Assembly (NCBI GenBank): GCA_015233195.1
Contig: JADFYE010000001.1
Span: 83,583-147,582, forward strand
Direction of reading: 5' to 3'
Source: Candidatus Omnitrophota bacterium
Lineage (GTDB): Bacteria; Omnitrophota; Gorgyraeia; Zapsychrales; Zapsychraceae
Length of the DNA: 64,000 nucleotides
Positions 6,252 through 46,566 of this stretch are shown here, one piece after another (within the stretch, counting starts at the first letter, position 1; the number at the start of each line of letters is the position of its first letter). A program made the translations under genes and the position numbers. Under the pieces are notes generated by a model. That model searched no databases, was not told where the DNA came from, and saw only the letters and a program-made list of their open reading frames with translations.

Positions 6252-6254
6252 CAG

Positions 6255-7680: not shown

Positions 7681-7698
7681 CAAAGTTTTGACATAAAT

Positions 7699-8469: not shown

Positions 8470-8471
8470 GC

Positions 8472-9514: not shown

Positions 9515-9522
9515 GAAAATAT

Positions 9523-10221: not shown

Positions 10222-10233
10222 CAAAGGAGAATT

Positions 10234-30561: not shown

Positions 30562-33500
30562 ATGATACTGAATATTATTCCCAAATTTATTTTACGCAGG
30601 ATAATTGCGGCGATTGTTTTGACTGCATTCGTAGCCACGAGTGTAATTTCTCCTGCAGTCGCGCAAACAGCTTTGAGCTTACCAGCCGCAGGTTCACAGA
30701 TTAGTTTAAGCCCAGCATTTACCCCAACGTTACTTACCGGGGTGAAAATATTCCCTGAAAATCCGTTTAAGTTGGAATTTATTTTAAATAAAAGCCCTGA
30801 ACCACGTGGGGTTCAGGGTGCGCCCTTTGAACCGGGTCTGGTTCAGGGTGATAATAATGATCCCCTCTCCAGCCTCCGGGGAGAGGGTCAGGGTGAGGGG
30901 AAACAGGAAGATATAAAAAAAGAAGCCAATCGTTTAATCAAATATTTTTTAGCTTCTGTAACTGTCCCGGAAAAAGACCTTTGGGTAAACCTTTCGCCTG
31001 TTGAAAAAAATTGCATCACAACTGAAGCATTTGGTCAGACCGAAATGGGTCGCGATTTGCTGGCGCAAGACTATATTCTCAAACAAATCACTGCATCATT
31101 GCTTAATCCTGACAATGAAACCGGTCGGAAGTTTTGGGAATCGATATATTCGAAAGTATACCTTCCCCCCAACAAGAATACTGGGGTGGGGAAGGGCAGG
31201 GTAGGGGGGCAAGACTTTGATATCTCAACAGATATCTTGAGCAAAGTCTGGATCGTCCCTGCAAAAGCGGTGGTGTATGAGGGGAAAGATAGCGCGTACG
31301 TAGTGGAATCAAAATTAAAAGTGCTTTTGGAAGAAGACTACAATGTCATTCTGAGGAACGAAGTGACGAAGAATCTAAAAAAAGATCCTTCCCCTTCGCA
31401 AACTCAGGGTCAGGATGACGCAAAGTTAAATATGCAATTAATGCGTCAAATCATCATCCCTGCCCTAGAGCGCGAAGTTAACGAAGGCAAGAATTTCGCT
31501 CAGCTTCGACAGATTTACAACTCTCTCATCCTCGCCACATGGTACAAAGATAAAGTAAAATCAAGCATATTTGGCAAAGCCTACATTGACCAAAAGAAAA
31601 CCGGCGGCATCAACATCTCCGATAAAAACGAAAAAGAAAAAATTTGGGCGCAGTACGTTGAGATATTTAAAAAAGGCGCGTACAACAATATCAAAGAAGA
31701 ATATGACCCTGCCACGCAGCAGATCATAGCAAAAAAATATTTCTCCGGCGGAGCAGGACTGAATGAAATCAAAGAAAATGGCGCTTATAGCAAGACAACG
31801 GATAAAGCTAAGCAACCTAAAGGTATTTTGGACAGCGCGATGGTTGTTAAGGTTACGCTCGATCCTGCTATGAAATCCGAAGACGCTGCTATGCCAGCTG
31901 ACAAGATCATTCCTATGACCTGGCAGCAGGCTGTTGAAGAATTACGGAAAGTTCCTGTTGTGCGGTCAACAGCGAAAAAGTGGATCGCGGTCATGGCATT
32001 TAATAATAAAGGGGAAGTATTGTTACGGCATAAAGTACTAGATGATTCCAATTTAAATGATTGGATGCATAAAGACCTTATTACAGATCCAGAATTTCAA
32101 CGTAAAAATGAAGTTAGCGTTGATTGGGTTTCGGTTGTGTTCGATTATAAGAATGGGAAAGTGGGAGATATTATTATTGATGCACCAGCTTTGTCAAATC
32201 AAAGGCAAGGACATACAGATGGAATATTGAAATTCAAAGGTCTTTTGCGCGACGAGTTACCGCAAAATTGGCAGATACAGCCTGGACGGGATCATATTCA
32301 GCGATATAAAGTCATGTTAAAAAATGATGTGATCCGTGCGGCGCGTCTTATGTGTGATGCTTGGCAGCCTATTGATCCGCTTATTGGAGAAACAAATACC
32401 AAAGCTTTATATGATGTAAACCTTGGGGAACAAGAAAGGTCATTAAAACAAATCGCAGCAGAATCATTGACAGAGGATTTTGCGATGCTGGCAGACGCGG
32501 AAACATTGGAAATTTCTTCTGGTCAGGATTTAGGGTGGGAATTACAAAAATTTCTTAAAATAAATCCGAATTTAATCTTAGAGAATAAGCGGCAGGGGCT
32601 TAAATATAAAATTCAGCGACGATTAGGAGACGCGGAGCATCTTGGAGTTTATCAAGCTTTACGATTTTCTGAACAAGAACCACAAGGTAAGATGGTAGCT
32701 TTAAAAATATATCACGCGCCGTTTATGTATTATGTTGAGATTCAGGAAATAGCCGACTTTTTTAAAGCCATTAAAGACGATCCGCAAGCAATTGAGTTTT
32801 TTGCAAAACCAACAGAAAAATTAGCAGTCAGTATGGCGCAATGGGAAAATTATCATTTGCTGGATATGGATTTTGTAGAGGGCACACCTTTAAGTCATAT
32901 TACTGATAAAGAAAAAAGGCTTAAAATAATTTTAGATTTTATTGAGAAGTTAGCGCACATTCATAGAACATATAAAGCATTTCATGGAGATTTAAATGAA
33001 AATAATGTTATGGTTCATCCTGATGGTAGTCCGGTAGTTATAGATTGGGATTTTTTAAGAATTGCAGATGACCGGGACAGCATCGAGCAGATTAAGTTTT
33101 CAATGAAGTATAAAGATATTTTTTCTGTTGGTTCTATGCTTTTACAGACTTTTGTACCGTCAGCAGAAGTGTTGGAATCTCCAAATGTGTTTACTGGTGA
33201 TCTTTGGCAGACTGATGTTGACATCAGCGCAACAACCCCAACTGAAATAAAAGGAGCTGACGGTATTGTGCCCGAAGGAATATTAAAAATAATCAAAAAA
33301 GCCATGTTGTGTACGCCGAGTGATCATTATGAATCACTGGATCAATTATTGAATGATTTAAGAAATGAGCTAGGTGTAGCGAAGAATACTTATAGTAATG
33401 GCACCAGTCCAATATTTACTAATAAACAACAAATAATAGATTTCTTACAGCAGTTTCCTTTTGCAGAGGGGCATGTACATTTTGGAAGTTCAGTTCCGGA

Positions 33501-36057
33501 GGATACTTTGTGGGAATTGGCGCTTGAAAGGACTGAATTAGATTGGACGGATATAAATCAGGAATTAAATCGAGTCTTTGGTGTAACAGTTGATATTAAA
33601 GATATTTTAGATGAGGCACGTCGAGAATATGCTGTAGGTAAAGGTGAATTGATTAATATAGAAAAAATAAATAAGTTAAAGACTGAATTTTTAAGTTATT
33701 TTACATTGAAAATAACTGATAAAGTTGATTTGAGAAAATTTAGCACACTTTATGACATTTTAGGAACTTTAACGCGAGGGCCATCTGCGTTGGTTGAAAG
33801 AATATCAAAACAGATTGCGTTAAAAAATTATGTAAATGGAGTAAAAGTTTTAATTCAAAGAGCTACTTTGCCTAAAGGACATAATGAAATAGATGTGTAT
33901 TTTAAAACGCGGGATAAATTATACGCGATCAAGCGGGGTTTTGAAAGCGCTGAACAAGAGGTTAATTCAAAATTAAAAAGTGGTGAGGTTGGTCTTCAAA
34001 CTAAATTGGTAGTTACTATTGGAAGATCATCGAATGTAGATGTGCTGCTTATGCAAACTAAGGCTTTATTACGGGTATTGGCAGATTATAAAGATTTACG
34101 AGAGTTTGTAGTTGGATTTGATGTGGCAGGAGAAGAAAGTTTAAAATCGCCGACTGAATTGATTCCGGTGTTTGATTTGATCGATCAATATAATCATCAA
34201 AGGCAATTGAAACAAGAAGAGGTTTTAGCCATAACTTATCACGTAGGAGAAGACTTTAAGCATGTTTCAGTTGAGAGCAGTATTCGTAACGCGGATGAAG
34301 TTATTGAATTGGGAACGCGTGGGATCGGTCATGGTTTGGTGCTGGGACTTGATCCTCAAAGATTTTTGGGCAAAACTAAAAAAGAACACATTAGTGAACG
34401 GCTTACTCAAATATATTATGATCTTAAGAATAAAAAGTTTTTCAAGAAAGAATTAGCTGCTGTTGGTTTGGTTATTGATGAAACTGTACTTTGGGAGGAG
34501 CTGAAAGCATTTCCAGATGAAAATGAATACATTAAAAAACAAATTTTGCCGCTGATGGAGAAAATTTTAACGGCATCAGCGCTGGATATAAAGTCTGAAA
34601 AGAAACTTTATGCTCGGTTGAATAAAATGAAACAATTATTTAGGCACAAAACTGTTTCAACGTTATATGAAACGCAGGAGAGCATTAAAGTGTTAAGACA
34701 AAGGCAAAGGTTTGTTTTAAATAAAGCGATTGAAAGACAGGTGATTATAGAAGTTAATCCATCGGTTAATGTTCTTATCGGTCCAATTGAGGAATATAGA
34801 GAGCATCCTCTACCTAATTTGCTTAGATATGAATATACTGGAGCCAAGGCGGAATTTAAAGGCCAGCGGCCGCTGGTATCGATTAATACGGATAATCAAA
34901 CAATTTTGGGTATAGATTTGATTCATGAATATCTGCAAATGATATTAACATTTGGTTTGACGCATGACGACGTGAAACAAATCATTTTAAACGGAATTAA
35001 ATATAGATTAGGTGGGTTTCCATTAAAGTATGCTGAACAAATCCGTGCAGTATTTGAGGCTATGGGGGTGAGTGTAGATATTGATCAGGCTATGGCAGTA
35101 AAAAGCAGACCAGGTCAATATGCCAATTTTACTGATTTTTCAAAGCGCGCGATTTTAGGTCCTCTCCCAGACGGGAAAGGTAGTAGCATTACGGCTCAGG
35201 AGATTATTGAAAGAGAGTTGCCGGCAGCTTTATATACGGTTAAAAATTTGATTCGTCTGAGAATATGGATGGATGAGAATGGATATGCCGATCGACCGGT
35301 TGTTATTTGGCAGAATTTAAGTTTGGGGGAATATTATCCTTATTTTACTGAGGATATTAAGCGTCACATGGGCGTAGTTGATTATCTTGAAGAAGGTATT
35401 ACGAAAAAAAATATTATGCGATTAAAGAATGCCAGGTTTATTTTGATTAAAGCCAAAATGAGTTCAGAATTCGCTAACATTAGTGAGGAGTATGAAAAGT
35501 TTATGTATTTATCGTCTAGAATCAAAGCTCCGATAGTGATGATTGACCACAGTAATGGTATTTTTTCAAAAGCGCAAATACAAATTAAATTAAACGAGGA
35601 GAGCGCGAAGCGTGAGGTATTGTCTTTGGGCGTTAAGGATGATAAGGATTTAGATAAGTATGCAAGTTTATTTAGGCAAGAAAATTTGTTTGTTTTATTA
35701 AATCCGAATTTAAAACCAATTGCTCGTGACGGGATATCATCGTTTGATGATCCAGGCGGTAACTTAGTTTCAGAAGTTACGATTAATAGCGAAAGAATGA
35801 AAGCTTTAAAGGCATTGAAAGTGTTATTAGGATATGCTGTAGAAAATAACTTGAAATTAAATGACACAGACGAAAAGGGCGGGATTGATTTAACTCGCGA
35901 TAAAATGAATATCGAGGTTAAAGGGGCACAGGATAGTGTTAAATTTAAAGTGGATCAAGCCATGTTGCAACAATTGCAAAATTCTTCAGGTTTAATGCCA
36001 GTAGTGGTTGATGTCCATCCGCTTACAACGACGATTGAAGTTTATTTGAATAATTAA
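30562..36057 (+). CDS. giant exported mosaic protein: signal peptide + conserved N module + kinase-like domain + adenosine/AMP-deaminase-like domain + conserved C-terminal 'GGIDL' module
   Basis: Uninterrupted 1,831-codon ORF. The signal reads 'RRIIAAIVLTAFVATSVISPAVAQT'. Kinase motifs are 'VALK' (K715) and 'HGDLNENN' (H808-D810, nt 32983), followed by 'VIDWD'. Deaminase motifs are 'GHVHFGSS' (H971/H973, nt 33472), 'YHVGED' (H1227/E1230, nt 34240), 'GIGHG' (H1257, nt 34330) and 'SINTDNQ' (D1444, nt 34891). Confidence 0.85.
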   Translation: MILNIIPKFILRRIIAAIVLTAFVATSVISPAVAQTALSLPAAGSQISLSPAFTPTLLTGVKIFPENPFKLEFILNKSPEPRGVQGAPFEPGLVQGDNNDPLSSLRGEGQGEGKQEDIKKEANRLIKYFLASVTVPEKDLWVNLSPVEKNCITTEAFGQTEMGRDLLAQDYILKQITASLLNPDNETGRKFWESIYSKVYLPPNKNTGVGKGRVGGQDFDISTDILSKVWIVPAKAVVYEGKDSAYVVESKLKVLLEEDYNVILRNEVTKNLKKDPSPSQTQGQDDAKLNMQLMRQIIIPALEREVNEGKNFAQLRQIYNSLILATWYKDKVKSSIFGKAYIDQKKTGGINISDKNEKEKIWAQYVEIFKKGAYNNIKEEYDPATQQIIAKKYFSGGAGLNEIKENGAYSKTTDKAKQPKGILDSAMVVKVTLDPAMKSEDAAMPADKIIPMTWQQAVEELRKVPVVRSTAKKWIAVMAFNNKGEVLLRHKVLDDSNLNDWMHKDLITDPEFQRKNEVSVDWVSVVFDYKNGKVGDIIIDAPALSNQRQGHTDGILKFKGLLRDELPQNWQIQPGRDHIQRYKVMLKNDVIRAARLMCDAWQPIDPLIGETNTKALYDVNLGEQERSLKQIAAESLTEDFAMLADAETLEISSGQDLGWELQKFLKINPNLILENKRQGLKYKIQRRLGDAEHLGVYQALRFSEQEPQGKMVALKIYHAPFMYYVEIQEIADFFKAIKDDPQAIEFFAKPTEKLAVSMAQWENYHLLDMDFVEGTPLSHITDKEKRLKIILDFIEKLAHIHRTYKAFHGDLNENNVMVHPDGSPVVIDWDFLRIADDRDSIEQIKFSMKYKDIFSVGSMLLQTFVPSAEVLESPNVFTGDLWQTDVDISATTPTEIKGADGIVPEGILKIIKKAMLCTPSDHYESLDQLLNDLRNELGVAKNTYSNGTSPIFTNKQQIIDFLQQFPFAEGHVHFGSSVPEDTLWELALERTELDWTDINQELNRVFGVTVDIKDILDEARREYAVGKGELINIEKINKLKTEFLSYFTLKITDKVDLRKFSTLYDILGTLTRGPSALVERISKQIALKNYVNGVKVLIQRATLPKGHNEIDVYFKTRDKLYAIKRGFESAEQEVNSKLKSGEVGLQTKLVVTIGRSSNVDVLLMQTKALLRVLADYKDLREFVVGFDVAGEESLKSPTELIPVFDLIDQYNHQRQLKQEEVLAITYHVGEDFKHVSVESSIRNADEVIELGTRGIGHGLVLGLDPQRFLGKTKKEHISERLTQIYYDLKNKKFFKKELAAVGLVIDETVLWEELKAFPDENEYIKKQILPLMEKILTASALDIKSEKKLYARLNKMKQLFRHKTVSTLYETQESIKVLRQRQRFVLNKAIERQVIIEVNPSVNVLIGPIEEYREHPLPNLLRYEYTGAKAEFKGQRPLVSINTDNQTILGIDLIHEYLQMILTFGLTHDDVKQIILNGIKYRLGGFPLKYAEQIRAVFEAMGVSVDIDQAMAVKSRPGQYANFTDFSKRAILGPLPDGKGSSITAQEIIERELPAALYTVKNLIRLRIWMDENGYADRPVVIWQNLSLGEYYPYFTEDIKRHMGVVDYLEEGITKKNIMRLKNARFILIKAKMSSEFANISEEYEKFMYLSSRIKAPIVMIDHSNGIFSKAQIQIKLNEESAKREVLSLGVKDDKDLDKYASLFRQENLFVLLNPNLKPIARDGISSFDDPGGNLVSEVTINSERMKALKALKVLLGYAVENNLKLNDTDEKGGIDLTRDKMNIEVKGAQDSVKFKVDQAMLQQLQNSSGLMPVVVDVHPLTTTIEVYLNN

Positions 36058-37676
36058 TTATTAAGTAAACTTTTCTGCACTAAAAGTTTTTTCTCACCTA
36101 TAGGGATCACTTTATATCCATATTTTTCCGGATCAGCTAGAAATTCGTGAAATTGGGTGTCAGCTCTGAATCGGGAATATTCGAGCAAAGGAGGGGACAC
36201 AACTATCATGTTGAGATTTTGTCTTTTTGAAAAATCCCAGTATTTCTCGTCTGGTTGTTTTGAGTATTCAGGATATGAGCAGTAGTTATTATCAAGGTAA
36301 ATATTTAAACTGCCTTCAGCTTCTAATAAATTGACGGGCGCTTTAATATGTAAATCATCTATAGCGCGGATAATTTGTTCAGTAGGTTTAGGAATACTTT
36401 TAGTTTTATTATAAAAAAAGAAACAGCTGGGCGTAATGATAAATAAGATTAATGCTGGAATCATAATTTGTTTTAGGGAATGATTTTTAGTGCTTTCTTT
36501 TGGGTTTAATAAAATGCATAAAAGCAGGATTAACATTATCCCGGTGAATAATATGTAGTGCGTGCGGGGAAAGATAACTAATACAGATATGAGTGAAGTT
36601 AACAGATAAATTGAAATGAAAAAAATTGGACGTAAATTAGTTTTGAAGTTTTGTTTTATTGGGATTTGTTTGTTTTTTAATAAGACAAATAAATATAGAA
36701 AAATTGCTGATATTAACATATATGCTTCCGCGTAAATATAAACTAGCGGCGGCAGTAGAATGTTGGTGTGCAGCATAAAGCATTTGAACATTTGGTTGCA
36801 AGTGCGAGGGATATTCGCGAGCACGTGTTTTATAAATAGTATTGGGTTGTTTAACAGCGCTTCTTTTACAGTGGTAGCTGTTCCAAAATTTATTTGCATT
36901 ATTTCATTCCAATTAGTCATGGGGTTCAGCGTTGAATGGGTCCATCTGACCCAGTTGACACCAAAAGAAGGACCAAAGGCACAAAACCCGCGGTCTCCGT
37001 TTTGGAAATGGAATGGCATACCACGGAATATTTTAATGGCACATAGGGAAGTAATAATTACCGCACCGAGAATAATATAGTCTTTTATTTTTAAATTTTT
37101 TATTTTAAACAGAAAGGATAACAGGTAAATACCGAAGAAAATTAAAAAAGTTAAAAATAATTCTGGTCGGATGTATGCGCCTACCAGCGCTCCGATAGTT
37201 GCTATTGCTATACTTGAAGTGAAGGTTTTAGGTTTTTGCGCAAGTGCTAGGGATATTAGTATGCTGATAGTAGCAAAATGATAAACTTTAGTGAACACGT
37301 CGAGATTTACTTTGGCTATAAGCATAAAAAATGTAATGATGGCTGAATTTAAAATAGGGATTTTGTAAGCGCGAAGGGTTACATACAGAATTAAGGGCAA
37401 TAAAATGGTTAGTATTTGCTGGTTTAAATAATATAACGCAAATTTTTGGGGTGTTATTAAAGATAATAAAAAATACCAGATCGAATATATAGGACCTACT
37501 TGAGCTCCGGTTATGCCGGATTTAAGAAAATTTACACCGCCGGATAAATATGAGCTTTCATCGAACAGGGTGATATCCATAAAGTTTGGCATGCCATAAG
37601 TGAATTTTAAGGCGCATAAAAATAACGCGAAAAACATTATCAGGTCAAAATGGGCAGATAAAAATTTTTTAAACAT
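36054..37676 (-). CDS. polytopic membrane protein, probable GT-C-type glycosyltransferase with C-terminal soluble domain
   Basis: At least 10 TM helices. The first extracytoplasmic loop contains 'LFDESSY', an acidic motif like those of PMT/ArnT-type enzymes. It lies immediately downstream, on the minus strand, of a polyprenyl-phosphate-GT-like GT2 gene. Confidence 0.5.
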   Translation of the reverse strand: MFKKFLSAHFDLIMFFALFLCALKFTYGMPNFMDITLFDESSYLSGGVNFLKSGITGAQVGPIYSIWYFLLSLITPQKFALYYLNQQILTILLPLILYVTLRAYKIPILNSAIITFFMLIAKVNLDVFTKVYHFATISILISLALAQKPKTFTSSIAIATIGALVGAYIRPELFLTFLIFFGIYLLSFLFKIKNLKIKDYIILGAVIITSLCAIKIFRGMPFHFQNGDRGFCAFGPSFGVNWVRWTHSTLNPMTNWNEIMQINFGTATTVKEALLNNPILFIKHVLANIPRTCNQMFKCFMLHTNILLPPLVYIYAEAYMLISAIFLYLFVLLKNKQIPIKQNFKTNLRPIFFISIYLLTSLISVLVIFPRTHYILFTGIMLILLLCILLNPKESTKNHSLKQIMIPALILFIITPSCFFFYNKTKSIPKPTEQIIRAIDDLHIKAPVNLLEAEGSLNIYLDNNYCSYPEYSKQPDEKYWDFSKRQNLNMIVVSPPLLEYSRFRADTQFHEFLADPEKYGYKVIPIGEKKLLVQKSLLNN

Positions 37677-37694
37677 GGGTATTTCTCCGGAATA

Positions 37695-38420
37695 TTATTT
37701 TTTAAGCCAATGTTTTTTTAATGCGAAAATATACCATTTGATATATCTGGGCAGCCATTGAGCTAACTTGAAATTTGATTTACCTGCAGTGCGGTCTTGC
37801 CAGGTGGTAGGGATCTCGGCAATTTTAAATCCTTTAAAGTGGGCTTTAATGGTTATTTCCATTCCTAATTCAAAGCCGCCGTTACTTTCAATAGTAATAG
37901 CTTTTAAGACTTGAGGCGAATACATTTTAAAGCTATTGGTTATATCGTGGGTAGGCAGACCAGCTAAATAATGTAAAGAAACTCCGGCTACGCGGGATAA
38001 GGTTTTTTTAAACCAGGGACCACCAATCTGTTTGCCGCCTTTCATGTAACGGGAACCGCAGACCAGGTCAAAGTCGCTATTAAGTAATTCTAACATTTTG
38101 TCAACTTTGCAAAGGTCATCTGAGAGGTCAGCCATAGTAACTAAAGCCGGATTTTCCCCAGAGGATTCAAGACCGGTTTTAATAGCGTTTAAAGCTCCAC
38201 GACCGTATTTATTTTGCATTAATAGTATGTTAGTCGCCTTAGTATTTTTTATATATTCAGTAACTTTGGGGATAGTGGTATCTTGCGGAGTATCGTAGAC
38301 GATAAGTACAGTGTTTGGTACAAGGATTAATTCTTTGATTTTGTCCAGCGTCGATTTAATGACGTCGCTTTCATTATAAACCGGGATAACAATGGTTAAA
38401 TGCTCAAATTTCATTGTCAC
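37695..38420 (-). CDS. family 2 glycosyltransferase (ArnC/DPM1-like polyprenyl-phosphate glycosyltransferase)
   Basis: 'LTIVIPVYNE', 'LIVYDTPQDTT' and 'MADLSDD' mark a GT-A fold of about 240 aa, typical of the Dpm1/ArnC/GtrB group. Confidence 0.78.
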   Translation of the reverse strand: MTMKFEHLTIVIPVYNESDVIKSTLDKIKELILVPNTVLIVYDTPQDTTIPKVTEYIKNTKATNILLMQNKYGRGALNAIKTGLESSGENPALVTMADLSDDLCKVDKMLELLNSDFDLVCGSRYMKGGKQIGGPWFKKTLSRVAGVSLHYLAGLPTHDITNSFKMYSPQVLKAITIESNGGFELGMEITIKAHFKGFKIAEIPTTWQDRTAGKSNFKLAQWLPRYIKWYIFALKKHWLKK

Positions 38421-38425
38421 GTTTT

Positions 38426-39445
38426 TCAGATTCCTCCCAACTTAATCTGTTCTCTAATCCAGGGGATGATTTCATCTAACGCTGTATCGAGCGAGGTGTT
38501 AGCTTCGAATCTAAGTATATCTTTGGCTTTTTGTACGTTAGGAACTCGTTTTTGTACGTCGTACTGGAACGGTTTATCGGTTGTGTATTTAAATGGTTTA
38601 TTCGGATTTATTTTTTTCCAAATTGTTTCTGCAAGTTCAAGTACGGTAGTTGAGATAGGCGTGGATAAGTTAAAATCATTGTTAATAGCTTTAGGGTTTT
38701 CTATGCAAAGCCGGATGCCTTTAGCTAAATCACCGCCGTAAGTGTAATGACGGATTTGCCCACCATCGCCTAAAATATGCAGAGGGTCTTGACCTTTTAA
38801 AATCTTTTGGACTAAGTCAGGTACTACGTGGCTCATTGCCAGTTTTACATTGCCGGACATGATCTCTTTATCAGTTAACGCGCGTTTCTCGCCTGTTCCT
38901 ATACAATTAAAAGGTCGGATTATGGTGTAAGGTAATTTATATTGTTCCCACGCGCCTTTGGCAAAATATTCACAGGATAATTTTTGAAAGCCATAAGTAG
39001 AGAGCGGAGGAGGACATTTTAGCTGTTCTCCCTCAGGCGTGGGGAATATGTCGGTTGATTCAAAAACCATGGAAGAAGACATCACGTTGATTTTTTTTAA
39101 TTGTTTATTTTTAAATGCCCATAATGCCGCGTCAAAAGTGGCAGCAGTAATGCGTTCGTTTTCTGCTAATAGGTCATAAGCGAATTCGTGGAATAAAGAG
39201 ATGCCGCCGATGATCGCGGCACAGGCTAAGACCTGATCGCAGTCAGCGATAAGCGCTTTCATTAAAGGCAGGTCTTTGGCATCGCCTTCAACCAGACGGT
39301 AATTAGGGTTAAGGTCATAACTCTTTTCTACTTTGCCGTATTTGGAAAAATTATCGATACCGACTACATGATGACCATGACTTAATAATTCTTCAATTAA
39401 ATATCCGGCAATAAATCCGCTGGAACCTGTAACTAATATTTTCAT
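38426..39445 (-). CDS. NAD-dependent epimerase/dehydratase (extended SDR)
   Basis: 'ILVTGSSGFIAGYL' is the Rossmann motif. 'YGFQK' supplies the catalytic YxxxK. Confidence 0.85.
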   Translation of the reverse strand: MKILVTGSSGFIAGYLIEELLSHGHHVVGIDNFSKYGKVEKSYDLNPNYRLVEGDAKDLPLMKALIADCDQVLACAAIIGGISLFHEFAYDLLAENERITAATFDAALWAFKNKQLKKINVMSSSMVFESTDIFPTPEGEQLKCPPPLSTYGFQKLSCEYFAKGAWEQYKLPYTIIRPFNCIGTGEKRALTDKEIMSGNVKLAMSHVVPDLVQKILKGQDPLHILGDGGQIRHYTYGGDLAKGIRLCIENPKAINNDFNLSTPISTTVLELAETIWKKINPNKPFKYTTDKPFQYDVQKRVPNVQKAKDILRFEANTSLDTALDEIIPWIREQIKLGGI

Positions 39446-40638
39446 AATATTTTCCCGCCTTTATTATAAAAGTTCCAAATGTCGACTAAGTGAATATGCT
39501 CGGGGATTTTTAATTCAGAGTATTCTTTGTGTGGTGTGCCAACTATAAGTATGTCGCATTTTTTTAGAAGCTCATCAGTAGTTACAAAATCAGCATCTTT
39601 TATGTAAACGTCATGGCACAATACTTGAGCAGCTTCGACAGTCAAGATTTTTTTAAGTTTGTAGGATAATGATTCGCGTTTATCGTCTATGTTAGCTTTA
39701 AAAGCCATGCCTAAAATTCCGACGGTCTTAGTTTTTAGGTCAATCTTGGATTGAAGCTGGCTAATTACAAAATTAGGCAAGCCTTCATTAAGCAGCATAG
39801 CAGAATGCCCTAAAAAGAAATTGTTATTGCTGAAAGAAGAGAGCTGCATAGTGTCTTTAAATAAACAAGGACCAGCCGCAAACCCGGCTTTGGGGAACGC
39901 TTTTGCCCGAGGATAATTAAAAGTAAGGGCATCGTAAATTTTATAAAAATCCAAGTTGTGACTCGCGGCTAATTGATAGAACTGGTTAGCAGTAGCGAAC
40001 ATTATGTAGCGCCAGGAATTGGTAAATAATTTTGCCAGTTCAGCTTCAGGCGGAGTCAGGCGTAATACATCTTTAGTCAGATGTTTGAATAATTTTTCAG
40101 CCTCTTCAAATGAGGTTTCATCAAAAGCGGAAATTATTTGGGGAAGGGTTCGTAATTCTTCCATGCCTTTGCCTTCAGCTAAACGTTCCGGACAAAAGGA
40201 TAAACGCACATTTTTATTATGTTTTTTTAAATAAGCACAAACGTTTTCAGTAGTACCGGGATAAACTGTACTGCGTAAGACGATATGCTGCCCGTCAACA
40301 ATGTCTTGCATTAATCCGTCGAAGAAATCTAAAAATATGCGGTATTGCGGATTTAAGTATTCATCGACCGGAGTACCAATCACTACGACTACATAATGGG
40401 CTTGGCGGATGACATTTTTATCGTTTGAAACAAAGAAGGTGTTATTTAAGACTTTTGCCAGCACCTCATCAGCGCCTTGTTCCATAAACGGTATTTTTCC
40501 TGCGGATATAGTCTGGACAGCTTTTTCATTAATGTCATAAGCTGCGACTTTCATTCCAGTTTGAGCGAGGGATATCCCAAGAGGTAAGCCAATGTGACCC
40601 AGCCCGCCGATAACACAAACATCGTAAGCATTTGCCAT
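39442..40638 (-). CDS. nucleotide-sugar dehydrogenase (UDP-glucose/GDP-mannose dehydrogenase family)
   Basis: The N-terminus reads 'VCVIGGLGHIGLPLG'. The catalytic Cys lies in 'AAGPCLFKD'. Confidence 0.85.
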   Translation of the reverse strand: MANAYDVCVIGGLGHIGLPLGISLAQTGMKVAAYDINEKAVQTISAGKIPFMEQGADEVLAKVLNNTFFVSNDKNVIRQAHYVVVVIGTPVDEYLNPQYRIFLDFFDGLMQDIVDGQHIVLRSTVYPGTTENVCAYLKKHNKNVRLSFCPERLAEGKGMEELRTLPQIISAFDETSFEEAEKLFKHLTKDVLRLTPPEAELAKLFTNSWRYIMFATANQFYQLAASHNLDFYKIYDALTFNYPRAKAFPKAGFAAGPCLFKDTMQLSSFSNNNFFLGHSAMLLNEGLPNFVISQLQSKIDLKTKTVGILGMAFKANIDDKRESLSYKLKKILTVEAAQVLCHDVYIKDADFVTTDELLKKCDILIVGTPHKEYSELKIPEHIHLVDIWNFYNKGGKIL

Positions 40639-40798
40639 AAATATTCCTGTTTATCCGATTAAAATAAAAAAACTATTGAACTATCCCTATATTAATAACA
40701 AACAGAGATTTTGCAATTTATATTTGTGATTTGCTTTTATGATTAAGGACGTGGCATACTTTAGAATCAATAACAATAATACTATTTATATTAAATCT

Positions 40799-43102
40799 AT
40801 GCGTTTAAAACACTTATATATATTGCGTAAAAGTGTTACGTCAATTGTTCTATTCGCTTTCCTATTAACAAATGGGTTTGCTCATGTCTGTTCTGCGCAA
40901 AATGTTGTTACGCAAATAACTTTAAGTCCGGCATTTACACCCTCGCTTCTTACTGGTGTGAAAGTTTTTCCTGAAGATCCGTTTAAGTTGGAGTTTATTG
41001 TTAATAAAGGTCCAGTAAAATCGCTTCGCGATCACGGGGTTGATGATAGTCATTCTGAGGCTTTAGCCGAAGAATCTAAAAAATTAATCAAATATTTCCT
41101 CGCTTCAGTTACTATCCCAGAAAATGATCTTTGGGTTAATCTCTCGCCTACAGAAAAAAATCGGATTACAACAGAAGCATTTGGTCAAACTGAAATGGGG
41201 CGAGACTTACTCGCGCAGGATTACATCCTTAAACAAATCACATCAGCACTACTTAATCCTGATAATGAAACAGGTCGGAAATTTTGGAATGAAATTTATA
41301 GTAAAAGTTATAACGTAGGGGCACGACATGTCGTGCCCGAAATTCCAACAGATATCTTGAGTAAAGTTTGGATCGTCCCAGCAAAGGCAGTGGTTTATGA
41401 AGGGAAAGATAGCGCGTATGTTGTGGAGAGTAAATTGAAAGTGCTTTTGGAAACTGATTATTTTACGATGCAAAAAATGAAAAATTCCAAAAGCATCCCG
41501 AGGACACAGGACGAGGGAGTACCACAAAAAGATCCTTCACCTTCGCAAGCTCAGGCTCAGGATGACGCAAAGTTAAATATGCAATTAATGCGTCATATCA
41601 TTGTCCCCGTACTTGAAAAAGAAGTTAACGAAGGCAAGAATTTTGCACAACTGCGTCAGGTCTATAACTCACTCATCCTTGCAACCTGGTACAAGAAAAA
41701 AATAAAAGATAGTATATTTAACGCGTATATCGACCAGAAAAAAATCGCTGGCGTTGACATTTCGGACAAATCCGAAAAAGAAAAAATTTGGGCACAGTAC
41801 GTTGAAACATTTAAAAGAGGCGCATATAATTATGTCAAAGAAGAATACGACCCTAACGCTCAACAGATAATTGCAAAAAAATATTTTTCAGGTGGGGTAC
41901 AAATTAATGGGCGTTATAAAAAAGCTGAACGCGCGCAACTCGCCGCTAAAAAATCAGACGGAGCAATGATAGTTCGCGTTTTTTTGGATCCAGAGCAAAC
42001 TCAAGAAATTATTCAGATTAAAGATGGAATAGATCTTCGGAAGGTTGTAAAAGAAGCTTTTGTGAAAAATCCTAATATTGTTTTAGAAATACCAGGACAT
42101 AATATTCGATATGAAAATTTGCAAAGTTTAGGATTTGGAGGGTTTGGAAATGTTTATGCGGCTACGAGAAGGTCTGCGGATATGCATGACGGTAAAAGAG
42201 TGGCGATTAAAACATATGAAAGTGTAGGATGGTTTAGCTCGAAAACTGAAGTTTTTAGGGAATTTTTAAATGTAAGGAGTGGCGATGTTGCTGCTAAAAA
42301 CTTTTTTGTTGGTGTGACAGATTTTCGGGATGCAGCCAATGGCGACAGTTTAGATGTATGGAAAAATTATGGTTTGTTGGATATGGATTATATTGAAGGT
42401 ACGCGATTTTTTGAATTAAAAGATAAACAGCAGAAAATCAGAATTTTATTATATGTAATTGAGCAAATGGCAGGTTTTTTTAGAGAATATGGCGTTGTTC
42501 ATGGTGATTTACGAGCGAATAATATTTTGATCAAATCTGACGGCTATCCAATTGGAATTGATTGGGATTCGTTGTATATGTATAACGATTTGATGGATCG
42601 GTTTAAGTTTGTAAAAAGAGATATTAATACAGTTGGAACAATGCTTTTACATGTATTTGATCCTAAAGCAACTCTTCATTTAGTTACTGATCCCAAGTCG
42701 ACAACTAAAGGTTTAATCGTACAAATTAGTGGAGGCGAAAACATTCCTCCTGGAATAAAAAAAATTATTAAAAAGGCGGTATTTTGCAGAGAAGATAATC
42801 GTTTTGAATCTTTAGAAGATTTGTTGATTGATTTAAAAGCAGCTTTAGCAGAAGAAATGCCGGAGATTTTTACGAATAATAATTTACACGACGGTGATCA
42901 GGCGATGAAACACACTGGGGGTATTGATTTAACCGGAGATAAAATGGCTGTTCAGGTTGAGGGGACTGGTGATGGCATTCAGTTCAAGTTCGATCAAGCT
43001 ATGATCGCTAAAATTCAAAACGCTTCAGGACTTGCGCCTGTCATTATTGATATTAGGAACATGAATATAAGCCTGCTGCAGTTTTTAGGAGTTAATGAAT
43101 AA
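40799..43102 (+). CDS. exported paralogue of the giant protein: signal peptide + N module + Hanks-type kinase-like domain + C-terminal 'GGIDL' module (no deaminase)
   Basis: The signal reads 'SIVLFAFLLTNGFAHVCSAQN'. The N module aligns with 30562-36057 along about 360 aa. The kinase has a G-loop 'GFGGFGNVY' (nt 42131), 'VAIK' (nt 42200), 'HGDLRANN' (nt 42500) and 'GIDWD'. The ATG at 40799 is preferred over the track start at 40739. Confidence 0.82.
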   Translation: MRLKHLYILRKSVTSIVLFAFLLTNGFAHVCSAQNVVTQITLSPAFTPSLLTGVKVFPEDPFKLEFIVNKGPVKSLRDHGVDDSHSEALAEESKKLIKYFLASVTIPENDLWVNLSPTEKNRITTEAFGQTEMGRDLLAQDYILKQITSALLNPDNETGRKFWNEIYSKSYNVGARHVVPEIPTDILSKVWIVPAKAVVYEGKDSAYVVESKLKVLLETDYFTMQKMKNSKSIPRTQDEGVPQKDPSPSQAQAQDDAKLNMQLMRHIIVPVLEKEVNEGKNFAQLRQVYNSLILATWYKKKIKDSIFNAYIDQKKIAGVDISDKSEKEKIWAQYVETFKRGAYNYVKEEYDPNAQQIIAKKYFSGGVQINGRYKKAERAQLAAKKSDGAMIVRVFLDPEQTQEIIQIKDGIDLRKVVKEAFVKNPNIVLEIPGHNIRYENLQSLGFGGFGNVYAATRRSADMHDGKRVAIKTYESVGWFSSKTEVFREFLNVRSGDVAAKNFFVGVTDFRDAANGDSLDVWKNYGLLDMDYIEGTRFFELKDKQQKIRILLYVIEQMAGFFREYGVVHGDLRANNILIKSDGYPIGIDWDSLYMYNDLMDRFKFVKRDINTVGTMLLHVFDPKATLHLVTDPKSTTKGLIVQISGGENIPPGIKKIIKKAVFCREDNRFESLEDLLIDLKAALAEEMPEIFTNNNLHDGDQAMKHTGGIDLTGDKMAVQVEGTGDGIQFKFDQAMIAKIQNASGLAPVIIDIRNMNISLLQFLGVNE

Positions 43103-43167
43103 TCTTCTTCTAGGATGATTCAATAATAAAATGAATATTTATATTAAGATCATTAGGAAACCTTGCC

Positions 43168-43196
43168 TTGTCATTAGCGTTAACGTCTGGTAGAAT
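43168..43196 (+). promoter_or_regulatory. putative promoter (TTGTCA-17-TAGAAT with upstream TG)
   Basis: TTGTCA at 43168-43173 and TGgTAGAAT ending at 43196. Confidence 0.35.
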
Positions 43197-43237
43197 GGTC
43201 GAAATTTTAATAGTATATAGTATAAGGAGAAATGATT

Positions 43238-43711
43238 ATGGCTCGACCGGATTGGGATCAATATTTTATGAAATTGGCAATGTTAGCGTCGGAAAGGGCA
43301 ACTTGTCCACGGATGCATTGCGGTTGTGTTTTGGTAAAGGGTAAAAGTGTTATCGCGACTGGATATAATGGTTCTATTCCCGGTGATGATCATTGTGAGG
43401 ATGTGGGTTGTCTGGTCGTGGAAAATCATTGCCAGCGGACTAATCATGCGGAGATGAACGCGCTTACGCAGGCGGCAAAACATGGCAGTGCGGTTGATGG
43501 GGCAACTGCTTATGTTACTAATATGCCGTGTACGACTTGCGCGAAAGCGGTCATTGCTGCGGGTATTAAGCGGGTGGTTATTTTCTCGGATTATCATAGC
43601 ACGTTAGCTACGGATTTTTTTGCTAAAGCTAAAGTGCAGATTGATAAAATTGCTATGCCGAGTAAAGATATTGTGTATGATTTGGAAAAATATACGTCGG
43701 CGAAAAAATAA
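43238..43711 (+). CDS. comEB: dCMP (deoxycytidylate) deaminase, ComEB-like
   Basis: Zinc motifs 'HAEMNAL' and 'PCTTCAKAV'. AAGGAG lies 8 nt upstream of the ATG at 43238. Confidence 0.85.
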   Translation: MARPDWDQYFMKLAMLASERATCPRMHCGCVLVKGKSVIATGYNGSIPGDDHCEDVGCLVVENHCQRTNHAEMNALTQAAKHGSAVDGATAYVTNMPCTTCAKAVIAAGIKRVVIFSDYHSTLATDFFAKAKVQIDKIAMPSKDIVYDLEKYTSAKK

Positions 43712-44892
43712 TGTTAAAGACTAATAAAACACATATTGTTGATGAAAAAGGTAATCCGGTTCAACTGCGCGGAGTAAATTTCGGCGGTTGGTTGATGATG
43801 GAGGCGTATATACTTCACGCGCCTAATTACGCGGAACATTTATTTAAAAAGAAATTTGCGCAAGTGTTGGGTGAGGATGTGTTGGCAGAATTTGAATGCG
43901 CGTTCCGAGATAATTTTATTCAGGAGGAGGATTTTAAGAATATAAAAAAATTAGGTTTTAATTGCATCCGTGTTCCGTTTAATTATCGTGTGGTAGCGCC
44001 GGCGATGTCTGGTAAAGATAGAGGCGGATTAAAGTATTTGGATTTGGCAGTTGAATGGGCAGAGAAATATGGGATATGGGTAATATTGGATTTGCATGCC
44101 GCGCCAGGAAGCCAGAATCACGATTGGCATTCTGACAGCGATGGACGAGCGAAATTGTGGACGCATCGGTCCAATCAGAAAAAGACTTTGGCAGTGTGGG
44201 AATTTGTGGCAAATCGATATAAAGATTGTAAATCAGTTGCCGGTTATGATCTTTTGAATGAATCAGTATTAGAGGATACAGCGCTTTTGAATAAATTTTA
44301 TAAAGAGATTATTAAGACGATCCGTTCGGTTGATAAAAATCATATTTTGTTTATTGAGGGGAATAAATGGGCTACTAATATCGCGTGTTTAGATGAATTC
44401 GAAGATGATAATTACGTTTTAAGTATTCATAGTTATGAACCTTTGCATTTTACTTTTCATTTTGAACCAGGTTTAAGATATCCGTTAAAATCATTAAATT
44501 ATAAGTGCGATCGTTCGACTTTGGCCAAGCATTTGAAGCAGTATGCTGATATTGGTAGAAAACGACAAGTTCCTTTGTATAATGGCGAATTTGGAGTGCA
44601 TTATAGAGAAGGGTTTTATGGCGAGGATTTATGGGTTCTGGATATGGTTTCGATTATGAATGATCTTGGCATTCATTGGACGTACTGGACTTATAAAGCG
44701 ATTAAAAATTCTGTTTTCCCAGACGGATTATATAGTTATTATCCTAACCCAGTTTGGGTAAACCGCATGGGACCAGTAAGCGGATGGGATACATTCAGCC
44801 GTTTATGGAAAGAGCATAAAAATGCAAAGGCACTTTCTTGGCGGACACAAGAATTTAAATTGAATAAAGAAATATTAAATGGTTTAAAATAA
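43711..44892 (+). CDS. glycoside hydrolase family 5 (cellulase-like)
   Basis: 'RGVNFGGWL', 'IRVPF' and 'DLLNES' (acid/base Glu region). No obvious signal peptide. Confidence 0.78.
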   Translation: MLKTNKTHIVDEKGNPVQLRGVNFGGWLMMEAYILHAPNYAEHLFKKKFAQVLGEDVLAEFECAFRDNFIQEEDFKNIKKLGFNCIRVPFNYRVVAPAMSGKDRGGLKYLDLAVEWAEKYGIWVILDLHAAPGSQNHDWHSDSDGRAKLWTHRSNQKKTLAVWEFVANRYKDCKSVAGYDLLNESVLEDTALLNKFYKEIIKTIRSVDKNHILFIEGNKWATNIACLDEFEDDNYVLSIHSYEPLHFTFHFEPGLRYPLKSLNYKCDRSTLAKHLKQYADIGRKRQVPLYNGEFGVHYREGFYGEDLWVLDMVSIMNDLGIHWTYWTYKAIKNSVFPDGLYSYYPNPVWVNRMGPVSGWDTFSRLWKEHKNAKALSWRTQEFKLNKEILNGLK

Positions 44893-45704
44893 TGGAAAAG
44901 ATCACCAGTACTACTAATCCTAAAATTAAAAAATTGATCAGCTTGCGTGACAGTAAACACCGTCGAGAAGAAGGGCTTACGGTGGTTGAAGGCTATATGG
45001 AGGTTAAGCGGGCGTTAGCTTGCGCGTTTCAATTGACTGAAGTGTTTTATTGCGCGGATTTATTAAAAAAATATGACGATTGTATGGTTTTGGAACAATT
45101 GAAAAATCAACGGGCACGTTTAGTTGAGGTGTCAGATAGTGTTTTTGAAAAAATTTCATACGGCGATCGGCAGGAAGGGATTATAGCTTTATGTAAACCA
45201 AAAACATATGCTTTACGTGAATTAGTCAAGTTACAAAAGCCAAAATTACTTATGGTTTTGGAATCTGTAGAAAAGCCGGGTAACTTAGGTGCGATATTAC
45301 GGACTTGCGACGCGGTTGGTGTGGACGGTGTTATTGTGTGTGATAAGCGTACTGATATTTTTAATCCTAACGCGATCCGAGCGAGTTTAGGCACGGTATT
45401 TTCAGTTAAGATCGCGTTGTGTTCAAATGATGAGGCGTTGGAGTTTTTTAAAGCTAACAAAATTCAAGTGTGCGCGGCGTTTCCAGACGGAAAACAAGTT
45501 TATTCAGATACGGATTTGACTAAATCTACTGCGATAATAATGGGGACAGAGCATGAGGGATTGACGGAGTTTTGGATGCGCAACGCGGATACTCGAGTTC
45601 GTATACCAATGAACGGATTAGCAGATTCTTTGAATGTTTCAGTATCAGCGGCAGTGCTGTTATATGAAGCCCTTCGTCAAAGGACAAAGAAAGAGGTAGC
45701 ATGA
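44892..45704 (+). CDS. TrmH/SpoU-family RNA 2'-O-methyltransferase
   Basis: SPOUT motifs 'ESVEKPGNLGAILRT', 'IIMGTEHEGL' and 'SLNVSVSAAVLLYE'. Confidence 0.8.
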   Translation: MEKITSTTNPKIKKLISLRDSKHRREEGLTVVEGYMEVKRALACAFQLTEVFYCADLLKKYDDCMVLEQLKNQRARLVEVSDSVFEKISYGDRQEGIIALCKPKTYALRELVKLQKPKLLMVLESVEKPGNLGAILRTCDAVGVDGVIVCDKRTDIFNPNAIRASLGTVFSVKIALCSNDEALEFFKANKIQVCAAFPDGKQVYSDTDLTKSTAIIMGTEHEGLTEFWMRNADTRVRIPMNGLADSLNVSVSAAVLLYEALRQRTKKEVA

Positions 45705-46561: not shown

Positions 46562-46566
46562 GGTTT

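Follow-up and report, generated by a model that had tools for sequence, protein, structure and literature searches.

Dockerins are short, mostly C-terminal elements carried by many secreted enzymes; they bind cohesins, which assembles their carriers on a scaffold, and they are conditionally structured. MARTX toxins have conserved N- and C-terminal regions enclosing a variable array of effectors, which is shuffled by recombination, and are processed between domains. These toxins depend on type-1 secretion and contain long glycine-rich repeats and a cysteine protease domain that cuts after Leu. The polyvalent proteins of phages and conjugative elements are long chains of unrelated enzyme domains, among them the ART-PolyVal family of Pfam. 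Omnitrophota are widespread, uncultured and very small bacteria that are suspected to live off other cells. According to passages of PMC11285876, the T9SS CTDs are autonomous Ig-like 3+4 beta-sandwiches.

The window, i.e., the whole stretch of 64,000 nucleotides that was analyzed, encodes two proteins ending in a common module that starts with GGIDL, which the original prediction proposed as a sorting or anchoring signal. As a constant element, this module caps the C-terminus in a very large family of modular proteins found almost only in Omnitrophota. These proteins consist of a signal peptide of the Sec type, a conserved domain at the N-terminus (N-domain), interchangeable enzyme cargo and, at the very end, the module. 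Within the literature and databases searched, the family is undescribed so far. A literature search for "GGIDL" returned nothing relevant, and the single Omnitrophota passage of the lipocone paper contains no description of the module family.

The two copies of the window and their family

Translation of the two module segments (Table 1) exactly reproduced the tail peptides of the original prediction, each followed by a stop codon, and these tails are the C-termini of carriers 1 and 2. Pairwise BLASTP of the two copies revealed 32/70 identities (E=5e-15), and 28 of 66 columns were invariant between them in a MAFFT alignment. A six-frame scan of the window did not reveal any third copy. Profiles built from module copies recover thousands of proteins with E values down to 1e-32, indicating that the similarity of the tails is far beyond chance. 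Both proteins contain the complete module (GGIDL...DPAM...PVIINIQP...FLG) within ~33 aa of the C-terminus, and both contain the signal peptide and the N-domain, with the consensus LSPxFxPPLLKGIKV...LIKYFLAS...DLWVNLSP...TEMGRDLL.... Carrier 1 is composed, in this order, of the signal peptide, the N-domain, an unknown segment, a RIO/Bud32-like kinase, an adenosine-deaminase-like domain, a further unknown segment and the module; carrier 2 is composed of the signal peptide, the N-domain, a protein kinase and the module. The description of the two proteins as exported is consistent with the single signal-peptide- or TM-like segment of each, which is N-terminal, since no other TM-like segment was detected. 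The last 80 aa were likewise free of TM-like segments (highest 19-residue hydropathy, 1.16-1.21). The carriers are not "otherwise divergent," as they had been called, since the two also have in common the N-terminal domain of ~400 aa (61% identity) and a domain of the kinase type (34%).

Table 1. Positions in the window of the two carriers and their parts
Feature	Position	Strand	Details
Carrier 1 (giant protein), 1831 aa	30562..36057	+	ORF
Predicted Sec signal peptide, carrier 1	30562..30663	+	K8/R12/R13 n-region, hydrophobic core, A-V-A before Q35; heuristic call
Conserved N-domain, carrier 1	30664..31830	+	aa ~35-423
Three D-x-A-M, carrier 1, directly after N-domain	31831..31893	+	DSAM aa 424, DPAM aa 434, DAAM aa 441
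D-x-A-M, carrier 1, border before kinase cargo	32476..32487	+	DFAM, aa 639
Kinase cargo, carrier 1	32500..33375	+	RIO1/APH/Bud32-like; HGDLNENN and IDWD motifs present
Adenosine-deaminase-like cargo, carrier 1	33430..35004	+	matches A_deaminase; RdrB far below its cut-off
D-x-A-M, carrier 1, border after deaminase cargo	35083..35094	+	DQAM, aa 1508
C-terminal module copy 1, subtype A	35878..36057	+	GGIDLT...DQAMLQQLQNSSGLMPVVVDV...; aa 1773-1831 + stop; family profile E=3.2e-26
D-x-A-M within module copy 1	35953..35964	+	DQAM, aa 1798; start of predicted helix
Carrier 2 (paralogue), 787 aa	40739..43102	+	NCBI protein HQL25_00670, Candidatus Omnitrophica MAG
Conserved N-domain, carrier 2	40898..41956	+	aa ~54-406
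D-x-A-M, carrier 2, directly after N-domain	41957..41968	+	DGAM, aa 407
Protein-kinase cargo, carrier 2	42101..42853	+	domain profile matches
D-x-A-M, carrier 2	42896..42907	+	DQAM, aa 720; 3 residues upstream of GGIDL
C-terminal module copy 2, subtype A	42917..43102	+	aa 727-787 + stop; family profile E=1.4e-26
D-x-A-M within module copy 2	42992..43003	+	DQAM, aa 752

A two-sequence profile returned only 7 matches in a word-indexed search because of the sensitivity of the index, and an exhaustive profile search of 1.84 billion proteins was used instead. This search, of the kind that had been proposed for finding further carriers, afforded 3,147 cluster representatives of the module at E<=1e-3, including 1,479 at E<=1e-10; the module is therefore not limited to the two paralogues. 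The consensus of its core (57 positions) is GGIDLT-x9-QN-x-G-x-GIKFHLDPAMLQQLQNAPGFVPVIINIQPM-x-DL-x2-FLG. Most of the core columns hold >2 bits of information, and nearly every position is conserved. The claim of a strictly C-terminal location held for all complete copies examined (328/328), which end 0 to 33 residues (median, 5 aa) before the stop codon. Internal occurrences were half-modules only (GGIDL to DxAM). Neither of the two outcomes that were to refute the original prediction was thus obtained, since the carriers extend far beyond the pair in the window and every internal copy was incomplete. Module loci confirmed in species-representative genomes numbered 202, and among the best 80 of these an Omnitrophota label was present on 57; several genomes contained 3 to 5 of the listed loci. 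This distribution agrees with the anticipated lineage restriction. Family members typically comprise 700-2,000 aa, i.e., most are not giants.

Short ORFs limited to the module were considered as small tag genes, and most were treated as fragments or remnants. Among those on long contigs, two (L002 and L003) are located directly downstream of a family gene. For two others (L004 and L005), neighboring genes of the same assemblies are also split, indicating frameshift errors.

The genes neighboring the carriers in the window are involved in housekeeping and glycan synthesis. No gene family recurs beside the module genes in 80 loci, and no secretion gene was detected in the window or recurrently in the 80 loci. 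The expected association with a candidate processing or secretion gene was thus not recovered in either set. Relatives of the module were absent from 2.9 million viral contigs, and an origin of the family from mobile elements was rejected on this basis. At one locus (L069), a tandem pair of paralogues whose cargo is unrelated has 303 nt in common at 97% identity, extending from the middle of the module to past the stop codon. The conserved ends may serve as homology arms for the exchange of cargo between paralogues.

The N-domain, the cargo and the D-x-A-M motif

Sec-like N-termini, defined by a basic n-region and a hydrophobic core, were present in 104 of 110 intact N-termini according to a heuristic rather than a dedicated predictor, in agreement with the proposal that the carriers bear signal peptides. 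The N-domain that follows spans ~350-400 aa in the family and was folded with confidence in prediction. In the AlphaFold2 model of carrier 2, pLDDT values were mostly 70-96 across aa ~30-380, with a few 10-residue blocks at 53-69. Foldseek did not detect any structural match of the N-domain at E<=0.001 in the PDB (best, 0.27) or BFVD (best, 0.03). Neither the N-domain nor the module matched a PDB entry by sequence in single-sequence and profile searches or a known domain in Pfam, NCBIfam, PADLOC and PHROGs.

The two ends of the family occur together. The module terminates 99 of 108 (92%) of the N-domain relatives, and the N-domain is present in 28 of the 31 module ORFs with a closed 5' end, two of the three exceptions being split genes. 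In two carriers devoid of the N-domain, 29 and 45 nt separate the start from the edge of the contig. Carriers of this type were therefore rejected as proof of an independent tag, since the two that were checked are cut at contig edges and split genes account for two of the three closed exceptions. Thus, the module does not behave as the free-standing tag on unrelated proteins that had been envisaged, being almost obligately paired with one particular N-terminal domain of ~400 aa.

In contrast to the N-domain, which had mostly pLDDT values of 70-96 in the same AlphaFold2 run (whole paralogue, 87 sequences), the module was modeled with values of 40-72. Modeling of the module alone (125 sequences) resulted in a mean pLDDT of 60.6 and a pTM of 0.30, with one hairpin and two short helices at low confidence. 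The module is not predicted to fold alone, although the low pLDDT might equally reflect a failure of AlphaFold2 on a small novel fold.

The cargo was surveyed by a Pfam scan of 44 carriers and with the precomputed domains of 120 relatives. Between the two ends, this survey revealed unrelated enzymes of the cytoplasmic type, including radical SAM, ART, hexokinase, GNAT, PLD, PRTase, M48, HATPase, PGK, transketolase-like, NUDIX, methyltransferase and other domains, thereby bearing out the proposal that the carriers differ in their cargo. Many of the cargo enzymes depend on ATP, SAM or Fe-S clusters, which makes a destination in the periplasm or outside the cell difficult to explain unless they are finally delivered into another cell.

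Judging from its distribution in the sequences, D-x-A-M is a family-specific linear motif that separates the cargo domains. We found 158 occurrences in 58 carriers versus 7.5 +/- 2.5 expected (~20-fold enrichment), 6 versus 0.15 in the giant protein and 3 versus 0.08 in the paralogue; the other proteins of the window showed no enrichment (3 observed, 1.5 expected). The sites are located at apparent domain borders, their flanks are not conserved, and most family members have one <= ~15 residues upstream of GGIDL. The codon usage of the motif indicates selection on the protein rather than on the DNA. Internal translation starts were rejected as an explanation, since D codons are used as in the background, the x position is encoded by diverse codons and the enrichment of SD-like sequences is only weak (22% versus 11%). 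Cleavage at D-x-A-M is a conjecture.

Possible roles of the module

The proposal of a C-terminal tag stands in part. The module is terminal, lineage-restricted and multicopy, and its carriers combine Sec-like N-termini with unrelated cargo, but it is not free-standing and, in the window and the 80 loci, is not linked to a machinery gene. Because the module is terminal, very highly conserved and not predicted to fold autonomously, we infer that a function in sorting, anchoring or oligomerization is plausible, if unproven. The reading that we favor, at about even confidence, is that the module is an end-cap through which a partner recognizes the members of a modular family exported via Sec. Following export, the module, which would have to be at the C-terminus, would be recognized by this partner, a conserved factor whose gene is located elsewhere in the genome. 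The factor may sort, retain, assemble or process the protein, and the hydrophobic strand P-V-I-I-N-I-Q-P of the module could be bound by strand addition. The D-x-A-M sites, including the one inside the module, may provide further points of contact or cleavage for the same machinery. In its mode of action, the module would thus resemble a C-terminal tag for sorting or assembly, except that the N-domain always accompanies it.

A broader version of the preferred reading is tentative. The signal peptide, the N-domain, D-x-A-M and the GGIDL module would together define a phylum-specific protein-handling pathway, in which cytoplasmic-type enzymes are exported as fusions, the module is recognized and D-x-A-M is cut. 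The cargo of this putative pathway would include dozens of enzymes (kinases, deaminases, radical-SAM and glycolytic enzymes, ADP-ribosyltransferases), and these might be directed either into host or prey cells, as an arsenal of effectors, or into an assembly or compartment of enzymes outside the cytoplasm.

Since the N-domain is always present, unlike the unrelated mature N-termini that carry classical tags, the N-domain and the module could work as one unit without external machinery. Under this explanation, the module binds the N-domain, either in the same chain, closing around the cargo, or head to tail between chains, forming enzyme chains or arrays. The near-obligate co-occurrence of the two ends, the absence of a linked gene for an external partner and the combination, in the module, of no autonomous fold with a strongly strand-forming hydrophobic stretch between prolines are all consistent with such binding. 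However, the whole-paralogue AlphaFold2 model, with its much lower pLDDT for the module than for the N-domain, does not indicate any confident intramolecular docking, and we regard this explanation as unlikely.

Somewhat less probable still is a removable pro-segment, acting as an intramolecular chaperone or an autoinhibitory cap and cut at D-x-A-M upstream of or inside the module during a polyprotein-like maturation. Large modular toxins, which release effector arrays by cleavage, offer a model for such maturation. The closeness of D-x-A-M to GGIDL in most members, its recurrence inside the module and its ~20-fold enrichment at apparent domain borders family-wide fit this scheme, as does the post-translational cleavage into several products proposed for Omnitrophota giant proteins in passages of 10.1101/2023.11.21.568195. 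However, a family-wide protease domain was not found in the carriers surveyed, M48 occurring in only 2 of 44, and a cap destined to be discarded is not obviously in need of 57 near-invariant residues.

The module is very unlikely to be a divergent version of a described C-terminal signal, whether T9SS CTD, dockerin, a type-1 secretion signal or a signal for sortase, exosortase or rhombosortase. The general behavior of the module fits, since it is terminal, lineage-specific, multicopy and borne by signal-peptide carriers, but there was no Pfam or NCBIfam match at E<=0.1, no C-terminal TM helix or basic tail and no predicted beta-sandwich, and the carriers have signal peptides, unlike type-1 substrates. 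Ordinary common ancestry of two neighboring paralogues whose tail has no special role is scarcely credible, since the module is retained by thousands of carriers whose cargo is unrelated, is far better conserved than that cargo and is terminal in every complete copy examined, even though the window proteins are paralogous along their whole common architecture.

At least several thousand proteins belong to the family, with several copies per genome. In them, a signal peptide is joined to enzymes whose normal place of work is the cytoplasm alone, with a conserved element at either end and a motif that punctuates the chain. Should the module prove to be a signal for sorting or assembly, its sequence could be used to list the exported or effector proteins of an entire phylum and to guide the search for the machinery that recognizes it, and multidomain and giant Omnitrophota proteins would gain defined candidate cleavage points. 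Passages of published work note the lack of information on cleavage points in such proteins. Irrespective of what they do, the N-domain and the module each constitute a well-defined domain family that the searched collections (Pfam, NCBIfam, PHROGs and PADLOC) do not contain.

Comparison with described systems

The claim that the module lacks any known sorting motif was upheld, since no known tag was matched in Pfam, in NCBIfam or by the hydropathy of the tails. The module resembles the T9SS CTD of Bacteroidota in its C-terminal position, its length (~60-100 residues), the Sec signal peptides and diverse cargo of its carriers, its multiple copies and its confinement to one lineage. It differs from the T9SS CTD in its phylum (Omnitrophota), in the absence of a predicted autonomous fold and in its constant association with one specific N-terminal domain. 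The T9SS CTD models (Pfam Por_Secre_tail or its NCBIfam/TIGRFAM equivalent) did not match either window protein at E<=0.1, and the AlphaFold2 model of the module did not display an Ig-like beta-sandwich. In contrast to LPXTG, PEP-CTERM and GlyGly-CTERM signals, the module is not followed by a TM helix and a basic tail, only 0-33 residues being present after FLG. The family also differs from type-1 (RTX) secretion substrates, since 104 of the 110 N-termini are Sec-like and GGIDL occurs about once per protein (63 in 58), without nonapeptide arrays.

The module shares with dockerin its shortness, its C-terminal location and the diversity of the putatively secreted enzymes that carry it, and it may likewise bind a partner and be structured only conditionally. 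Pfam did not detect a dockerin match, the module consensus is devoid of DxDxDG-type or duplicated calcium-binding loops, and no cohesin-like partner was found. The cargo is of the cytoplasmic type, in contrast to the carbohydrate-active enzymes of cellulosomes.

The conserved ends around variable enzyme domains recall the MARTX toxins in architecture only. The family differs by its Sec signal peptide, its short and nonrepetitive ends and the conjectural nature of the cleavage at D-x-A-M, and Peptidase_C80 was absent from the Pfam matches of the 44 carriers and the precomputed domains of the 120 relatives. Similarly, the combination of unrelated enzyme domains in long proteins recalls the polyvalent proteins, and ART-PolyVal was present in 2 of 44 carriers, but the family has no copies on viral contigs, has chromosomal housekeeping neighbors and combines a signal peptide with fixed N- and C-terminal ends.

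Passages of two reports on Omnitrophota giant proteins (10.1101/2023.11.21.568195 and 10.64898/2026.06.07.730766) contain no description of the N-domain, the GGIDL module or D-x-A-M. As described in these passages, the giant proteins resemble the family in their phylum, their signal peptides, their proposed cleavage into multiple products and a similar mix of enzymes, including methyltransferase, HATPase, GNAT, radical SAM and PGM domains.

C-terminal module of two window proteins

Translation of the two module segments yielded exactly the peptides on which the original prediction was based, each followed by a stop codon, confirming that the GGIDL module forms the C terminus of both the giant protein and its paralogue (table). 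The tails share 32 identities over 70 positions (BLASTP, E=5e-15), 28 of 66 columns were invariant in the MAFFT alignment, and these two copies were the only ones detected in the window by a six-frame motif scan. The proteins had been considered otherwise divergent, a description that does not hold, since identity reaches 61% over the N-terminal ~400 residues and a RIO/Bud32-like protein kinase is common to both (34% identity). The giant protein additionally contains an adenosine-deaminase-like domain, for which RdrB and CARF_ADA matches were weak and far below cut-off. Enzymes with cytoplasmic substrates, namely, this kinase and deaminase, are apparently exported. The sole transmembrane-like segment of each protein is N-terminal, and no transmembrane-capable stretch was found in the last 80 residues of either.

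NCBI protein HQL25_00670, from a Candidatus Omnitrophica MAG, has the same sequence as the paralogue, and this MAG encodes at least a third family member on a different contig. The annotated start of the paralogue (M1; window 40739-40801) adds 20 residues, MIKDVAYFRINNNNTIYIKS, before a typical signal peptide beginning at M21. Translation may in fact begin with the ATG at 40799; a clear ribosome-binding site was seen ahead of neither start codon (M1 or M21).

Features of the two module-bearing proteins and of the intervening region
Feature	Window position	Strand	Remark
Giant protein, ORF	30562-36057	+	1831 aa; module at C terminus
Giant protein, N-domain	30664-31830		~350-400 aa
Giant protein, D-x-A-M at aa 424, 434, 441	31831-31893		apparent domain border
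Giant protein, D-x-A-M at aa 639	32476-32487		apparent domain border
Giant protein, kinase and adenosine-deaminase-like domain	32500-35004		behind Sec-type signal peptide
Giant protein, D-x-A-M at aa 1508	35083-35094		apparent domain border
Giant protein, module	35878-36057		subtype A
Giant protein, D-x-A-M at aa 1798	35953-35964		inside module
Glycan-synthesis block	36054-40638	-	between the two paralogues, opposite strand
Paralogue, ORF	40739-43102	+	787 aa; module at C terminus
Paralogue, N-domain	40898-41956		~350-400 aa
Paralogue, D-x-A-M at aa 407	41957-41968		apparent domain border
Paralogue, D-x-A-M at aa 720	42896-42907		apparent domain border
Paralogue, module	42917-43102		subtype A
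Paralogue, D-x-A-M at aa 752	42992-43003		inside module

Distribution and architecture of the carrier family

A word-indexed protein search with a two-sequence profile gave only 7 matches, one from a Candidatus Omnitrophica MAG. Exhaustive search of 1.84 billion cluster representatives with a nine-sequence profile identified 3,147 proteins at E<=1e-3 (1,479 at E<=1e-10). The match was always near the C terminus among the 150 matches listed (tail median of 5 and maximum of 21 residues), and complete copies were located 0 to 33 residues from the C terminus in 328 of 328 cases in the 340 proteins collected, in which internal matches consisted only of half-modules (GGIDL, hairpin, DxAM) or insertion-interrupted copies. 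Thus, with thousands of carriers and complete copies terminal in all 328 cases, the module is neither restricted to two paralogues nor internal in cytoplasmic proteins, the two outcomes that would have spoken against the original prediction. Internal half-modules were seen within two long carriers, P0010 (aa 980-1002) and P0027 (aa 615-635); they may mean that the first half also serves as a linker unit, or that these proteins are fusions of tandem members.

Scanning one genome per GTDB species by pattern and tblastn confirmed 202 module loci. The best 80 of these were labeled Omnitrophota or Omnitrophica (57) or, as deposited, 'uncultured Planctomycetales' third-party MAGs (17), 'bacterium' (3), Ca. 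Elulimicrobium (2), and 'Alphaproteobacteria' (1). Several genomes contributed 3-5 loci each to these 80, and some copies were ~10 kb apart on a single contig, as in the window. No relatives were found on 2.9 million viral contigs. The data show the module to be the constant C terminus of a very large family, almost exclusive to Omnitrophota, with signal-peptide-like N termini.

Most full-length carriers start with a basic and then a hydrophobic stretch, followed by the common N-domain (LSPxFxPPLLKGIKVxPDNPFRFDFILDKG...LIKYFLAS...DLWVNLSPYEKDRI...FGxTEMGRDLLxQDYxLKQ), and signal-peptide-like features were present in 104 of 110 intact N termini. Searches of Pfam, NCBIfam, and PDB sequences gave no match to the N-domain, nor did Foldseek at E<=0.001. 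This domain is a near-obligate partner of the module, and the pairing holds both ways. The whole paralogue has at least 2,984 relatives, and the canonical module ended 99 of 108 newly seen top matches, several of the other 9 appearing truncated. Reciprocally, among the 31 module ORFs from genome loci with an upstream stop codon inside the locus, the N-domain was present in 28, two were split genes with the N-domain just upstream on the same strand, and one had no N-domain within the ~4 kb available upstream. Two long carriers lacking the N-domain begin close to a contig edge (29 and 45 nt away), and short 'module-only' ORFs on long contigs had neighboring genes that were also fragmented or a family gene just upstream.

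The content between the N-domain and the module varies without limit. The cargo of 44 carriers scanned with Pfam comprised radical SAM with a B12-binding domain, ART-PolyVal, M48 peptidase, GNAT, phosphoribosyltransferase, HATPase, hexokinase, ABC1, PLD, HEAT, receiver, and methyltransferase domains; precomputed domains of further relatives added PGK, PGM, transketolase/DXS-like and PEP-utilizing enzymes, histidine phosphatase, NUDIX, Zeta toxin, M23, GT2, epimerases, TPR, and WD40. The family plan is a fixed N-domain and swappable enzyme cargo, punctuated by D-x-A-M.

Alignment of 333 distinct module copies defined a core of 57 positions, from G-G-I-D-L-T to F-L-G, with >2 bits in most columns and near-invariant G6, G7, I8, D9, G43, P46, and I48 (profile column numbering). 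Two subtypes, A (...GLTPVIIDIQPMTTTVPMFLG) and B (...GFVPVIINIQPMxDLxxFLG), can coexist in one genome. The variable tail following the core frequently ends in ...(Q/K)LSMR or V/A-x-R/H in subtype A; the window copies lack such an end and terminate in ...VYLNN and ...FLGVNE.

D-x-A-M motif and genomic context

In 58 carriers of at least 500 aa, D-x-A-M occurred 158 times versus 7.5 +/- 2.5 in shuffles, and 110 of the 158 sites were outside the module. Sites are often found right after the N-domain, between cargo domains, or no more than ~15 residues upstream of GGIDL. Their flanks show no conservation, and doublets or triplets are frequent. The motif was not enriched in the other 52 window proteins (3 observed versus 1.5 expected in 16,766 residues). 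Internal start sites were ruled out, since the D codons show no departure from background usage, x is encoded by diverse codons, and Shine-Dalgarno-like sequences are only mildly enriched (22% versus 11%); at the sequence level, this indicates a family-specific peptide motif. Because it is short, context-free, and located at apparent domain borders, D-x-A-M is a candidate site of recognition or processing, cleavage being conjectural.

The carriers are flanked in the window by genes for an aminotransferase, the glycan-synthesis block, a tadA-like deaminase, a GH5 cellulase, SpoU methylase, RluA, and an ABC-F protein. The block encodes a GT2, an NAD-dependent epimerase, a UDP-glucose/GDP-mannose dehydrogenase, and a 540-aa protein with at least 9 transmembrane-like segments and no Pfam match, the convergent gene of which overlaps at its end the stop codon of the giant gene. 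The order module gene, SpoU methylase, RluA, ABC-F (window 43102-48516) is conserved in the metagenomic contig L005 (10001-13802), except that in the window only, the tadA-like deaminase and GH5 cellulase genes intervene between the module gene and that for SpoU.

Clustering of all ORFs from 80 genome-scan loci, two further loci (L002 and L003), and the central window revealed the carriers as the only recurrent family (59 loci), the next family reaching 6 loci. No processing or secretion gene was genetically linked to the module in this set.

In CAVYLG010000003.1 (L069), two neighboring ORFs of the family, arranged in tandem and ending at nt 1623 and 6213, encode unrelated cargo but have in common a 303-nt stretch (97% identity) that runs from the middle of the module to at least 150 nt downstream of the stop codon. 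This stretch is a tract of recent recombination or gene conversion, one boundary of which falls within the module, showing that the conserved end is able to serve as a homology arm when cargo is exchanged. In JADFXH010000003.1 (L003), a 1298-aa member (5900-9796) ends in a divergent module (...NGGIDLNTANG...VDPALIARIQ...SPVIFKMTP...), and a 147-aa ORF ~200 nt downstream (10001-10444) carries a canonical subtype-B module without a credible N terminus; this ORF may be the remnant of a replaced 3' end.

Proposed role of the module and related systems

In the AlphaFold2 model of the whole paralogue (87 sequences in the alignment), the N-domain (aa ~30-380) is predicted to fold confidently, with pLDDT values mostly of 70-96 and a few 10-residue blocks at 53-69, and the module scored 40-72. 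Modeled alone (125 sequences), the module had a mean pLDDT of 60.6 and a pTM of 0.30, with one small hairpin and two helices, one beginning immediately past the D of D-x-A-M and the other short and terminal; it is thus not predicted to fold alone. Since the module is terminal, conserved at almost every residue, and devoid of a predicted fold of its own, we infer that it is a partner-dependent recognition element resembling a sorting or assembly tag. Following Sec export, a partner would recognize the module, leading to sorting or assembly, and the D-x-A-M sites would offer the same factor additional points of contact or cleavage.

The obligate pairing of N-domain and module would also be accounted for if the module bound the N-domain, as an intramolecular clamp or a candidate head-to-tail polymer, but the monomer model displayed no confident docking. 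Alternatively, the module might be a pro-segment that is removed. The data contradict both simple shared ancestry and membership in a known tag family. Any model must solve the puzzle of Sec signals on enzymes requiring ATP, SAM, or Fe-S clusters. Their delivery into another cell would, speculatively, explain these signals, and fits the host-dependent or predatory lifestyle proposed for Omnitrophota in two reports (10.1101/2023.11.21.568195; 10.64898/2026.06.07.730766).

The module behaves like T9SS CTDs and dockerins, and the family resembles MARTX-type modular toxins in architecture, but the defining tests of each of these systems are failed. The full-text literature searched on 'GGIDL' and on Omnitrophota protein families contained no description of the N-domain, the module, or D-x-A-M. 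The family, with its putative function, is large, clean, and undescribed.
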